Assembly (NCBI GenBank): GCA_951406725.2
Contig: OX597814.1
Coordinates: 66,836,001 to 66,900,000, forward strand
Direction: 5' to 3'
Origin: Octopus vulgaris
Taxonomy: Eukaryota
Length of the DNA stretch: 64,000 nt
Below, piece by piece: positions 8,292-63,830 of the stretch. A program made the translations under genes and the position numbers. Each line of letters opens with the position of its first letter. The first letter of the stretch is position 1. A model generated the notes under the pieces. That model saw only the letters and a list, made by a program, of their open reading frames with translations, did not search any database and was not told the DNA's origin.

Positions 8292-8404
<113 letters not shown>

Positions 8405-8432
8405 CATACATACATATATATATATATACACA

Positions 8433-8468
<36 letters not shown>

Positions 8469-8479
8469 TATATAACGAA

Positions 8480-10612
8480 ATGAAGGAAGACATTACAGAA
8501 TTTTGTAGAAAATTGCGACTTAGTGAGGAACTATTCGACCAGCACAATGAGGATGAGTCACTAGCTAGAAATAAAAGCAACTACACCCCACCAAAAGGTA
8601 GAAATAAAATCCTAGACGAATTCTGTGAGCACATTACAAACTTCCCCTACCAACACTTACACAAACCAAAACCCAAACCAAACCTCAACAAGAAAGAGTG
8701 GGAAGAATTAAACAAATTAAAAAATGAAAGATCTATCACCATTAAAGAGGCCGATAAAGGAAGTGCAGTAGTCTTAATGGAGACAGAATACTATATCAAC
8801 TTAGCACTCTCCACCTTGGAAAATGGAACATATTACGAAAAGGCTGAACACTACAATCAACAGAAAATTATGAGAAACTTAAAAACCCTGATCAACCCCC
8901 ACAAAGAAGAACTCACTAACAAAGAATTCAACTTCATCACAAATTTCACTAGTAAAACCAGCCTCTTCTACGGTATTCCCAAAATTCATAAAAGCGAATT
9001 AATAAGTAAGGCATGCAAGGAAGCCACAAACTCTGTAATCAATGTCCCCTCACCAAATGACCTCAAATTGAGACCTATAATAGCAGGTCCCGCGTGCGAA
9101 ACCCACCGCCTTAGCAACTTCATTGATACCCTTCTCAAGCCGTTCCTCAAACACATTAAAAGCTACATAAGGGACGATCTAGATATGCTTAACCACCTCC
9201 CCAATACACTTCTTGCTGAACAAACCCTGCTAGTAACATTCGATGTAGTTAATCTTTACTCCAACATCCCCCACAACCTAGGAATAGAAGCTATCCAATT
9301 CTGGCTGGATAATTACTCCAACGAACTCCCACACCGCATCAAAAAGGAATTTATTTTAGAAGGACTCAAATTCATCTTAGAGAATAATTTCTTCACCTTC
9401 AACAACAAATTCTACAGACAGAAAATCAGGGACGGCAATGGGAACGAAGACAGCTCCCACTTACGCCAACCTAGTCATGGGATACCTGGAAATCACCCTC
9501 TATAATAACGTTCTTAACCACTCTCCACACACACATAGAGAAGAACTGGAAGAGATATCTTGATGACTGCTTCATCCTTTGGCCCGAAACCGTCGAGAAG
9601 CTTAAAGAATTTCACACCCTTATAAATGGGCTCAACACAAACATTATTTTCACAATGGAATACAGCCCTCAACAAATTCCCTTCCTCGACATCCTCATTA
9701 AAATTCACAACAAAAAAATAGAAACAGACATATACTACAAGCCCACAGACTCCAAGCAATACCTCCCTTTCAATTCATGCCACTCTAGACACGTTAAAAT
9801 TAACATTCCCTACAACTTAGCCAAGAGAATTTGCACTATAGTCTCCAATAAAAACACCCGTCTCTTACGTCTACAAGAACTCAAGGGCACATTAACAAGC
9901 AGGGATTACCCCACGTCACTAATTGACAATGGGATCCAACGCGCCCTAAAACTCAGCACACAGGAACTTAGACGCCCTAAACCTGTTACATCGAAACCCC
10001 ATACTCTACCATACATCTCTACACACAGCCCCCTCAACAATGAAGCTTTTGACACCATCCTCCAGAACATTCCTGTATTAAAAAAGGACCACAGAATGAA
10101 CCAAATCCTCCTAACACACGAAATCATAAAGAGCAAAAGGCAACCCAAATCATTGAAAACCATCCTAACAAATGCCAAAGTACTGCCAACCACAGCAACT
10201 AAACCCACAGTAAACAAATGCAATAGACCCAACTGTGGTATATGCATCAACCTAATAGAAGGTCCGGAATTCCTTTTTAAACAAGGACAACGTTTCACAG
10301 TAAAACACAACTTCACATGCGCATCAGAAAACCTAGTATATGTCTTAACTTGCTCGGGCTGTAATGAACACTACATAGGCCAAACTAAAAATAGCCTCCG
10401 CCAACGCATGACTGTCCACAGATCCCAAATAAAAATACAGGAATACAGAAAAATAGCACTTAGTGCACATATTGATACCTGTGCCGCACAACTCCATCCC
10501 AATTTTAGAATCTTTCCCCTCTACAAATTTAAAGACAATGCCACTCATACCCATGGAATCCCACCTTATTAATAAATACAGACCACTTCTAAACACATCC
10601 CCCTAACACGAA
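8480..10612 (+). pseudogene. PLE reverse transcriptase + GIY-YIG endonuclease, frameshifted
   Basis: [34 protein letters not shown] (after a frameshift near 9429), WKRYLDD, PFLD, YYKPT, CNRPNCGIC linker, LVYVLTCSGCNEHYIGQT. Confidence 0.93.
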
Positions 10613-36410: not shown

Positions 36411-36813
<403 letters not shown>

Positions 36814-49789: not shown

Positions 49790-49992
49790 AGCTTTCTTCC
49801 AAGGAATCTAGTGCTCTTACCTGAGTTTTTCCTTGGGGCTGGCCAGAAATTTGCCGAAATTGCAAAGATAATTTGGAACTCGACTGAGGAAAGAAAACTT
49901 CGAATGACACGTCCGTGTTTTTTCTTCTCCCTTTTTTGTGTCATCTATCTGTCTGGATGTTTTGCGTTCTTGTCCCATTTTTTGTATTCCTT

Positions 49993-51049: not shown

Positions 51050-52877
51050 AGAAAACAAAAATAATAAACCTCTCTAATATAACCCTTACACCAACCCAAA
51101 TTAACATCCTAGCCAGAGACTTGAAATTCACACCTACCCCAAGAACACCCAAGAACACCCAAGGATGACATTTCTGAATTTTGCAGAAAACTTCGGTTAA
51201 CAGAAGCTTTTACAGACCTCAACAATGAGGATGATTCAATTGTCCAAAACAAAAGTAACTACCTACCATCAAAAGGAAGAAATAAAGCACTGTACGATTT
51301 TTGCAACCACATCCAGAGTCTCCCCTTTACCCCATACAAAACCAAGGTTAAGTCCAACTTTAATAAGGATGAATGGAAAAACCTACGAGACCTACAACAG
51401 GACAAAAGCCTTACTATCAAAGATGCCGACAAAGGTAGTACTGTGGTCCTTGTGGACACGGATTTTTATAAACACCTAGTGCTTTCCTTGCTAAACAACA
51501 ACACTTTCTATGAGGTAATCACCAACTATAAACAACAAAAAACACTAAAAAACCTCACCACCCTCATACTCCAACACGGTCAAGGGCTCACGGAAAAAAT
51601 GCAAGCCCAACCTCTTTTATGGCCTTCCTAAAGTCCATAACCGAAGCCTGCAAACTTTCCTCTGACATCCACATCAACATCAAAGCACCGGAGGACCTAA
51701 AACTAAGGCCCATCGTAGCTGGCACCTCCTGCGAAACACACCGCTTGAGCAATTTCCTGGACATCCTTTTGAAACCTTTCCTTAGTCACATCTACTTAAT
51801 GGAAAACTGGAAAAGATACTTAGATGATTGTGTCATCATATGGAAAAAATCTTATGAAAAGCGTCTGGAATTCAAAACCACACTGAACAACATACATCCC
51901 AACATTCAATTCACTATGGAATTCAGCAAACATCATCTCCCTTTCCTTGATCTCCTAATTATAAAAACACCTAACAACCAAATCACAACAGACATCTACC
52001 ACAAACCTACAGACTCACAACAATACCTCCTCTTCAGTTCATGCCACCCAAAACACACCAAGATAAATATCCCTTTCAACTTAGCTAAAAGGATATGCAC
52101 CATTGTCTCGGATCCCAAAACTCGAGAAATACGCCTTCAAGACCTCAAAAAACACTATTACAACGCCAATATCCCTCCACACTCATAGTCTATGGAATAA
52201 AACGTGCCAAAAATAATACACTGAAAACCACCCAACACAGTAACACACCCAACCCCAAAATACTTCCATACATTTCCGCCCACAACCCCAAAAATATCGA
52301 AGCATACACCACAATCATACAAAACCTCCCCTTACTGTCCACAGACCCAAAAATGAATAATATTATCAATACTCATAAAATCCTTAAATGCAAAAGGCAA
52401 CATAAATCTTTGAAAAAACTCTTAACAAATGCCAAACTTCACACACCACATCCATCCCCATCAGTTAAAAAATGTGCACGCCCTAACTGTGGTACCTGCC
52501 CCTTCCTACTTGGAGGCTCTGAATTTACTTTCAAACAAGGAACAAAGTTTAAAATCAAGACCAACTTCTCCTGTTCTTCCGAGAACCTCATCTACGTTCT
52601 CACATGCGCCCGTTGCCAACACAATTATGTTGGACAAACGAGCCTTCCTTTACGTAGAAGAGTAGCGGTCCATAAAGAACAGATAAATCTCCCACAATAC
52701 CGTCAAATTCCACAAAGTAGCCACATAGACTCTTGCGCTAGAGATAAAAATCCTAAATTTCACATATTCCCTTTCTACCAATGTGAAGACGGAATCTCTA
52801 CACAAGAAAGAATCAACAAGGAGAATTTTTTAATTGAAAAATTTCAAACGCATCTTAATATGCAAACTCCACGATGA
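51050..52877 (+). pseudogene. PLE RT + GIY-YIG, frameshifted, RT core deleted
   Basis: IINLS...LKFTPTP, DADKG, LRPIVAG; jumps from FLSHI to WKRYLDD; CARPNCGTC; LIYVLTCARCQHNYVGQT. Confidence 0.92.
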
Positions 52878-57674: not shown

Positions 57675-58320
57675 ATGTAGAAAAATACAAACTGGGACAA
57701 GAACGTAAAACATTTAGAAGACGATACAAAAAACATGGACGGGACATTCGAAGCCTTCAATCTTCAGTCAAGAACCGGATCATCCTAGCAATTTCGGCTG
57801 ATTAATCTTGAGATCGCTCCGATCCGGCCAGCCCCAAGGAAAAACTAAGCTACGAGCATTAGATTTCTTGGAAGAAGGATCGAATGTATACGAAACAGGG
57901 ACAGAAAAACGGACGATGCCACACGAATATAAAATACAAAAAACAATAATGGTAAAAACAGGACAAAAACAGCGGGTGTCTTACGACTAATAAACAGTAC
58001 AACAAGTTTAGCTGGCGTATTTGGAAAAAATGCCTTTATCGGCAGACGAAGACAACAATGTTCTCACGGCAGTGGCCGGAGGCCAAAAGGCTGATTTTGA
58101 GCCAACAGAGTGTAGCAGTCCTATAAAGGACGATGTTACTGTTGTTTTAACCCCAGGGAAACATATTTTTCAGCTGGCTATCGACACAGTTTGTGACCAG
58201 GAACCTAGGTTTGTGAGTATCACGTAAGGCTAGAAATAGGAGCGACGTCATCCCTTGCAAATGCTATACGGACACATATCCGTTAACGGTTATTTTCAAT
58301 ACTTTTCTCGCTGTTTGGTG
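57675..58320 (-). mobile_element. Family D element ending at (TA)n
   Basis: 57680-58030 aligns with 60580-60965; non-coding. Confidence 0.8.
57747..57833 (-). ncRNA. Candidate permuted/pseudoknotted hammerhead (intact copy)
   Basis: ggctg-gccggatc-gg-agcgaTC-tcaaga-ttaat-cagcc-GAAA-ttgct-aggat-gatccggt-tcttga-CTGAAGA-hairpin; all four helices pair fully. Confidence 0.7.
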
Positions 58321-60586: not shown

Positions 60587-61310
60587 CAAAATGGGACAAG
60601 AACGCAAAACACCCGGACAGTTAGGTGATACAAAGATAGGACAACAAAACAACCAGATAGATGATACAAAGAAAACAAAGACGGGTCATTCGAAGTTTTC
60701 TTTTCTCAGTCAAGTACCAGATTATCTTCGTAATTTCGGCTGATTATACTTGAGATTACTCCAATCCGGCCAGCCCCAAGGAAAAACTAAGCTAAGAGCA
60801 TTAGATTTCTTGGAAGAAAGCAGCGACTGTATACAAAAACAAGGGCGGAAAAAACGGAAAATATTAAAGAAATACAATAAAAATAATAACAGGACATAAC
60901 AATAGGTGTCTTTCGACTAAGGATGAATTAAATTAAGCTAGCGTGTGTGGAAATGAAGCCTTACGGCAGGGATACGAGTTTTCACAAACACAGGGAGGAA
61001 TATCGATGCTGCACGGACAGCGGCCGACCAAGAAAGAAAGAACAGGCTTGGCCGAAAGCCGGTCACATGGGAAGAGGAGAGAGAGAAGTAGAAGCGGAGG
61101 GACAGAAGAATTAAGGAGGGACAAGAAAAAATGACAAGGCACAGTGAAGGGGCTGATAGACGGAAATAGAGTCGCAACAAACTTGCTTGCTGTTAAATTA
61201 TCATTTGTAAGTTTGCGGTATGCATTACGTCTCTTACCTTCGTTTATACATGTGAAATCTGTGATGAGCCTAAATGACGCTGATGACCTGGAGTCGCCTC
61301 TGGTATACAT
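60580..61310 (-). mobile_element. Family D element, second subfamily
   Basis: Aligns with 57675-58030 and 49790-49995; abuts (TA)n. Confidence 0.8.
60689..60775 (-). ncRNA. Candidate permuted hammerhead, covarying copy (G8A in core)
   Basis: ggctg-g-ccggatt-gga-gtaaTC-tcaagta-taat-cagcc-GAAA-ttac-gaagat-aatctgg-tacttga-CTGAGAA. Confidence 0.65.
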
Positions 61311-63424: not shown

Positions 63425-63686
63425 TCTATTTATGCGGCGAGTCCTTTCTTGTTACCACTTTTGCTTTGCAAGGACTGTTTCAACGAAGTTGCGTCTTGTC
63501 CTTACCTTAGAAAAGGCGGAGTAGATGAAACAGGGACAACTGAAGAAGGGGAATATTCCTTGTATTGTATGTTTTGTTTCTCTGTGTTTTTTTTTTTCGT
63601 TGTTCGAAAAATGTTCTTTTCTATGTTTTTGTTTTTATGTTTTCGTTTCTCATTGTGTTCAACTTTTTTGATGTCCTGTACCCATA
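63425..63686 (+). mobile_element. Family J non-coding element in TA-rich context
   Basis: Structured segment followed by a T-rich tail ending gtcctgtacccatata, reminiscent of the family D tail ttcttgtcccat. Confidence 0.55.
63469..63561 (+). ncRNA. Candidate permuted hammerhead, unrelated sequence family
   Basis: aagg-a-ctgtttca-acgaagtt-gcgTC-ttgtcc-tta-cctta-GAAA-aggcggagtaga-tgaaacag-ggacaa-CTGAAGA-aggggaatattcct. P (8 bp) and I (6 bp) are perfect; III is damaged. Confidence 0.55.
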
Positions 63687-63790
63687 TATGCAGGTATATA
63701 TACATATATATGTATGTACATATGCATATATTTATATATTATTTAAATTATTATATGATCGAACGCCACTCATCTTTTTCCAAGTAAGTT

Positions 63791-63830
<40 letters not shown>

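Follow-up and report, generated by a model that had tools for sequence, protein, structure and literature searches.

Eckert et al. (2023) described the hammerhead ribozyme as three blocks, S, G and C, each assumed to be uninterruptible, and it is because the CUGAnGA block is taken to be unbreakable that the current scheme allows six orders (PMC10085705). Types SGC and CSG, the latter with two metagenomic examples, cleave in vitro; non-circular hammerheads come from metatranscriptomes and metagenomes, plus one weak genomic case (PMC10085705). Hammerheads are also known from Penelope-like element (PLE) pseudo-LTRs and non-LTR retrozymes, where, in the accessible parts of the sources (PMC4209133; bioRxiv 10.64898/2026.07.22.740005), the ribozyme lies at the 3ʹ end of tandem, non-coding, PLE-like units and is a circular permutation type I form with a weak stem III. 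In its accessible part, the 2026 retrozyme preprint (bioRxiv 10.64898/2026.07.22.740005) relies on type I models only. For Naiads, the accessible part of Craig et al. 2021 (PMC8557442) reports a lack of canonical hammerheads, with half cores flagged in some. Here we describe a hammerhead-like layout in Octopus vulgaris that shares features with each of these systems.

The window, a stretch of 64,000 nt (contig OX597814.1, positions 66,836,001 to 66,900,000), contains a decayed copy of a dispersed repeat, family E, with a unit of about 810 bp. The remnant occupies 63460..63797 on the + strand, as do all the parts described below, and alignments to three relatives (L010, L015 and L019) show that it comprises the ribozyme region, then a U-rich tail and then the first part of the next tandem unit; the tail aligns to these relatives at 77–84%. 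The first part is the 5ʹ strand of stem II (63469..63473, from sequence and alignment), which has lost G10.1 and whose family form is GAAGG; AAGG at 63470-63473 pairs with CCUU at 63505-63508. It is followed by the 5ʹ strand of P (63475..63482), a helix linking the far ends of stems I and II, in which CUGUUUCA pairs at 8/8 positions with UGAAACAG at 63526-63533. The joint from P to stem III has a C-GAA half on its left side (63483..63489) and an AGUA-G half on its right (63519..63525), which we take to form a loop-E/S-turn-like motif, kept in families E and H. Block S (63490..63495) consists of the 3ʹ strand of stem III and GUC, with its C at 63495, after which intact relatives are predicted, by analogy, to be cut. 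The stem I strand following the predicted cut, UUGUCC (63496..63501), pairs at 6/6 positions with GGACAA at 63534-63539, as read from the sequence and the pair counts.

A 3-nt linker, UUA (63502..63504), leads from stem I to block G (63505..63518), which contains IIʹ with A in place of C at 11.1, GAAA at 63510-63513 and a damaged 5ʹ strand of stem III. Beyond the joint, Pʹ (63526..63533) abuts Iʹ, and Iʹ with the CUGAAGA core (63534..63546; CUGAAGA at 63540-63546) makes up block C minus its stem II strand. The 3ʹ hairpin at 63548..63561 includes a G run that doubles as a weak rival partner for stem II. The start of the next unit, at 63759..63797, is a tail extension with a splice-donor-like AAGTAAGT, so named from sequence likeness only, and ends in a CT/TA microsatellite. 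Tandem junctions of E and of the related family E2 carry this splice-donor-like AAGTAAGT (window 63759-63797; L015, L019 and L177). An intron is known for PLE pseudo-LTRs, and a donor at the unit start would fit one.

All of the elements listed for 63469..63561 by the initial annotation were found in place when we re-read the sequence. The annotation had also noted that stem III and the pair closing stem II are mismatched in this copy, as they are: positions 10.1 and 11.1 are C and A, and stem III is broken. Relative to other copies, three G are missing at the 5ʹ strand, an extra A follows GAAA, and stem III has a C-to-G change. Because G10.1 is lost, 11.1 is A, an A has been gained and stem III is altered, the window copy is very likely inactive.

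Are these defects those of one copy or of the family? First-look candidates in the 2.8-Gb genome number 2626 for E (40 scored, identity 90–100%), 2145 for E2, 2457 for H, 1918 for D and 1621 for F, counts that may overlap between related families. A 30-letter pattern of the intact core has at least 41 exact genome matches, and the reversed control has none. In 30 aligned E copies, GAAGG prevails in the 5ʹ strand, IIʹ reads CCUUC and stem III consists of CGCG/CGCG; G occupies 10.1 in 28/30 and C occupies 11.1 in 26/30, G12 is present in 26/30, and the CUGAnGA core adjoining stem I is invariant (30/30). The G10.1-C11.1 pair and stem III are thus restored in relatives, and the outcomes that would have counted against the annotated architecture, a consensus lacking stem III or GAAA or a dearth of further copies, did not materialise. 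We also scored copies with a full descriptor (IIIʹ-UH-I, IIʹ-GAAA-III and Iʹ-CUGAnGA, plus the 5ʹ stem II strand and helix P), which 8 of the 30 aligned E copies pass and 22 fail, in a set that had been picked for likeness to the damaged window copy. The descriptor has no full match in 3.83 Mb of locally shuffled window sequence, where a bare S-G-C core occurs once, and its only match in a random sample of 400 kb is a copy of family D. Rfam covariance models gave no gathering hits in the window, and for six loci (five descriptor-intact copies and one H copy) none of the 115 hits at E<=1 is to a hammerhead family.

The layout is common to seven families of the genome, E, E2, H, D, D2, F and N, whose helix sequences differ; the further families were reached by walking out from incidental matches, and one decayed copy of yet another type was seen (L113). 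The window itself has four copies of D or D2 type: an intact D copy on the − strand (57761..57833), with a kink-turn-like joint and a predicted cut after 57812; a D/D2-type copy with a damaged core, CUGAGAA (60672..60802, − strand); a D2-type copy in which an internal 19-nt deletion took out block S (49812..49921, + strand); and a short D-type fragment (36658..36696, + strand). CUGA(A/U/G)GA, GAAA, U16.1-A15.1 and G10.1-C11.1 are kept in 7/7 representative copies of six families, and in H. At the family level, an NUH site is present, as is GAAA between stems II and III with A15.1-U16.1; the triplets are less usual in E2 and H (GUU, AUA). Stems I and III vary freely among natural copies of six families, and the 5ʹ partner of stem II gives 5–6 pairs every time.

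Pairing is maintained across these differences. In an alignment of 19/30 E copies with 16/25 E2 copies, 95.9% of cells are paired, with both-side changes in stem I (two) and stem III (one). For nine E with 10/20 H copies, which have an upstream flank in common, 99.0% of cells are paired, and the 5ʹ stem II, with 98.9% of cells paired, is altered on both sides at 3/5 pairs. In 16 D, D2 and F copies, 95.4% of cells are paired and 9/16 pairs show both-side changes (3/5 in stem II, 4/5 in stem III and 2/6 in stem I). When strands were slid out of register, paired cells fell to 17–37% for D/D2/F and to 17–58% overall. All of these counts reflect few independent events, since the units of change are families rather than sequences, and P, which is offset by one column from family to family, was omitted from the counts on alignments A2 and A4 for that reason.

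The proposal of the initial annotation that the architecture is a class rather than a quirk of one repeat is thus borne out: seven families have it, and changes on both sides of the helix are seen in each of stems I, II and III. The opposite view, that the layout is a product of chance or an artefact of one rearranged repeat, with inversion or truncation scrambling a type I hammerhead, has in its favour that inversions and deletions do occur in these elements. However, 3.83 Mb of shuffled sequence yielded no match, compensatory changes are found in seven families, and reading by eye shows the same layout in consensus ends published for four phyla. We regard this explanation as already refuted by the covariation, and assign it next to no probability.

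Compared with described hammerheads, the octopus layout is closest to type SGC, exemplified by HRIMA-1 (PMC10085705). The two have in common the order of cleavage site, GAAA and CUGAnGA, all core letters, a linker of about 3 nt from stem I to IIʹ, and an additional helix that bridges stems I and II at their far ends. In type SGC, however, the strand that completes stem II and P directly follows CUGAnGA, whereas in the octopus layout that strand lies at the 5ʹ end, and both strands of P connect to stem III. Type SGC is also known from metatranscriptomes only (PMC10085705), whereas the octopus layout is a multi-thousand-copy animal repeat. The cyclic order and the link from P to IIIʹ are as in type CSG (PMC10085705), but type CSG is opened between G and C and the octopus layout inside C. 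In contrast to the type I hammerheads of PLE pseudo-LTRs and retrozymes, with which it shares its position at the 3ʹ end of tandem non-coding units, the octopus layout has a full stem III and is doubly pseudoknotted. The pseudoknot hammerhead of Zhan et al. 2024 (PMC11300833) likewise combines a hammerhead core with an extra helix at stems I and II, but its connectivity, in the accessible part of that paper, is pistol-like and unlike that described here; its main text contains neither “permut” nor “k-turn”. In the literature searched, this layout is not described, nor are permuted hammerheads reported for Naiads; subscription papers, bioRxiv supplements and the Eckert supplements may contain such a variant.

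The block order is S-G-C, as in type SGC, but stem II takes its second strand from the 5ʹ end, so that the chain is open between A9 and 10.1, where the published scheme allows no break. The S-G-C order itself has been published before, as type SGC (PMC10085705), and the novelty lies in having the stem II and P strand at the 5ʹ end. For families D, D2, F and N, natural copies offer IIʹ a best partner directly 3ʹ of CUGAnGA (0–2 nt) of at most two pairs, and it is for this reason that these families fall outside type SGC on the position of stem II. In E, E2 and H, a G run that follows one extra A beyond CUGAnGA gives four pairs, two of them G-U. Hence, the E lineage could adopt an ordinary type SGC fold, in which stem II forms with this G run, A9 and G10.1 are separated by an extra A, and GAAGG at the 5ʹ side serves as a competing switch. 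The 3ʹ register is paired in 97.2% of cells in E and H, where 2/4 pairs are changed on both sides, through G-U. In PLE hammerheads, stem II has been reported to have an unpaired base at its 5ʹ end (PMC4209133). In folds of the window copy and of E2, the 3ʹ UUCCUUG is taken up by the 5ʹ flank, a pairing that would leave the G run free. Nonetheless, the 3ʹ register is Watson-Crick in only 2/4 pairs, and the 5ʹ strand is so at 5/5 in both E and H. The duplex energy of the 3ʹ register is −2.8 kcal/mol, against −4.6 kcal/mol for the 5ʹ strand, and the G run competes in a hairpin of −3.2 kcal/mol. This reading also cannot cover the class, since D, D2, F and N have no such 3ʹ partner. We consider it unlikely for the E lineage, and the 5ʹ strand, in our judgement, is probably the working stem II in E. 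We conclude that the layout is a real, conserved and probably self-cleaving variant of the non-circularly permuted hammerhead, seen at this locus in a dead copy.

How might such an RNA fold and cleave? The 5ʹ flank would give one strand of stem II, the 3ʹ flank would give Iʹ and CUGAnGA, and both flanks would pair with the loop of a hairpin built from P and stem III. P and stem III form one hairpin, with I and IIʹ carried in its loop, and the flanks leave the far end of P with 0–2 spare bases. Minimum-energy folds, from a model without pseudoknots, recover P and stem III for E (L010), D and F, and favour other pairings for E2, N and the window copy. By a rod estimate, P in a monomer must reach back 36–39 Å, whereas a stacked, kinked joint reaches 18–27 Å. 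A fully unfolded joint reaches 39–72 Å, and the monomer then closes in all six families. The rod values are ones that we assume, and they describe rod geometry rather than an atomic model. In D, D2, F and N the joint resembles a kink-turn, and by eye it fits what we take to be the kink-turn consensus (tandem G-A/A-G after a 3-nt bulge). The joint of E and H is loop-E-like, and that of E2 is an unrelated 6x7 loop. We rejected a kink-turn at the family E joint, which is 8x8.

The shortfall of a stacked, kinked joint suggests cutting by two copies. In such an assembly the arms would be swapped, with P of one tandem copy clamping the stem II strand and Iʹ-CUGAnGA onto the loop of its neighbour, and cutting would require two copies. 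Eckert et al. note the same distance puzzle in a few SGC members (PMC10085705), and dimeric hammerheads have been proposed, in the accessible part of PMC4209133, for PLE repeats, as has dimeric action for the pseudo-LTR and retrozyme forms. In three Naiad ends (EuTe, Amil and 3_Chem), the P-III helices are nearly continuous by eye, and so could not turn back. From these geometric estimates we lean slightly towards a swapped-arm pair over a monomer with a folded-back P or a melted joint.

Cutting after the NUH triplet would most likely free the element RNA from tandem or read-through transcripts. One may also suppose that this fold is genuine and under selection without being a ribozyme on its own, and instead depends on a protein (a kink-turn binder or the RT of the element) or serves as a recognition signal for retrotransposition. 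The kink-turn-like joints of D, D2, F and N would suit such a role, as would the strained closure of the monomer, and the accessible part of PMC4209133 reports low in vitro activity for animal PLE hammerheads. The 5ʹ ends of truncated copies show no pile-up at the predicted cut, with 2/20 in D, 1/24 in E2 and 0/19 in N lying within 3 nt of it. However, the catalytic letters are all kept across families whose helices are unrelated, and a binding signal would not need such letters. Moreover, the joint is not conserved, being loop-E-like in E and H and an unrelated 6x7 loop in E2. We therefore regard a fold that works only as a signal or with a protein as improbable, and we have good confidence that intact members would prove catalytic.

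What kind of element carries this RNA? Copies of E are 5ʹ-truncated to varying lengths, some have inverted 5ʹ pieces, and TA repeats are found at the end. Head-to-tail units measure 811 bp in E and 830 bp in D, with eight copies in one D array. Tandems of E are preceded by another unit, and all 20 of the D unit starts sampled (20/20) are preceded by the tail of another unit, never by an ORF. Reading frames of the D units are low-complexity only, and we found no ORF beside copies of E (1.5-kb flanks), E2, D, F or N. The D array has the retrozyme trait of non-coding tandem units with one ribozyme each; the trait of a type I hammerhead is lacking in the octopus families. The features present, namely truncated 5ʹ ends, incomplete tandems, copies with inverted 5ʹ parts, targets in microsatellites and a tail, are marks that PMC8557442 describes for PLEs. 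Naiads, according to the same source, resemble these families in all of these respects, with TA microsatellites as the targets and a short tail; unlike Naiads, families E, D, F and H are known here without a linked Naiad ORF. We consider it fairly likely that what lies at this locus is a dead copy of a Penelope-like element that is non-coding and forms tandems, and whose intact members carry a hammerhead of S-G-C order with its opening between A9 and G10.1. That a Naiad-type partner mobilises E is, in our view, somewhat probable.

The window also contains two Penelope-like elements on the + strand, at 8294-10569 and about 51100-52874, each with RT followed by GIY-YIG; the former belongs to a young family with 784-aa open frames. 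The layout motif was absent from 30 loci of this RT-then-GIY-YIG family, and five relatives of the 8294-10569 element have no CUGAnGA within about 1.5 kb downstream. A CACGTGACC-like motif, possibly a promoter element, lies upstream of the ribozyme in units of E, D and F and recurs within the 3ʹ region of the RT-GIY-YIG elements (L181). Elsewhere in the genome, at G000:C13:24262096-24266090 (L163-L166), two near-identical inverted E2 pairs are about 3.5 kb apart.

Other hammerhead-like sequences were also encountered. A canonical type I array (L100:2307-4513) has a period of about 359 bp, with five cores on the + strand and two on the − strand, and is retrozyme-like. Repeated CUGAnGA cores in inverted or tandem repeats are present in the window at +17070, −16116, +59583, −58893, −59450 and +39738; from their sequence they look like type I or minimal PLE hammerheads, and all six failed a type I descriptor. 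Among the matches listed for viral contigs (240 loci, two loose patterns), none fits the descriptor of the octopus layout.

The published Naiad sequences connect these families to other animals. Family N matches the published Octopus Naiad 3ʹ end; the consensus 3ʹ ends of Naiad_Obim and Naiad_Ovul show the split layout, and a motif from the published Naiad_Obim end has 470 genome matches, with 0 for the control. We surveyed the last 350–420 nt of 53/54 Naiad consensus records by eye. The split layout is seen in nine of 53 ends, from a ctenophore, cnidarians, a crustacean and octopus (Bfor, 3_Chem, Amil, Aacu, Anas, 2_Movir, EuTe, Obim and Ovul); in Bfor, stem I has only about two pairs. The Esco end has a decayed split layout. 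Six nematode Naiads (1_Nbra, 2_Nbra, 3_Nbra, Hcon, Hpol and Asuum) fit type CSG by eye, with long P helices. In the remaining 37 ends the layout was not seen in the part read, some of these records being incomplete or longer-tailed. On the evidence of these sequences, the split and CSG layouts can be read as the same non-circular circle opened at different points, and a shift of the repeat boundary within a tandem could turn one into the other. The two layouts may explain the reported lack of canonical hammerheads in Naiads.

Two further observations concern Naiad ends of other kinds. That of Naiad-1_Movir (PMC8557442 supplement) resembles twister, and suggests that Naiads swap ribozyme classes. 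Bivalve and hemichordate Naiad ends have a conserved 3ʹ motif, CGGGUG ... GCUYAC ... CACC, with no hammerhead core, which is possibly another structured RNA. The twister likeness of the Naiad-1_Movir end is judged against the motif as we assume it to be.

In its broadest form, our proposal makes the layout a seventh hammerhead wiring, with the catalytic block itself opened at A9/G10.1, and the long-missed ribozyme of many Naiads in at least four animal phyla, with thousands of copies here, and has it act as a two-copy machine, in which the P-clamped arms of one tandem unit would cut the neighbouring loop and a kink-turn would set the angle in some families. Taken as a whole, we offer this tentatively, as a possibility that falls somewhat short of an even chance. 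A core-opened form at high copy number in animal genomes would extend the six-order scheme and would supply many natural variants for structure work. Naiads are said, in the accessible part of PMC8557442, to spread without canonical hammerheads, yet 15/53 of their ends have, by eye, a non-circularly permuted hammerhead (nine split and six CSG). Since searches for types I–III and Rfam miss these hammerheads, counts of self-cleaving RNAs in genomes may be too low.
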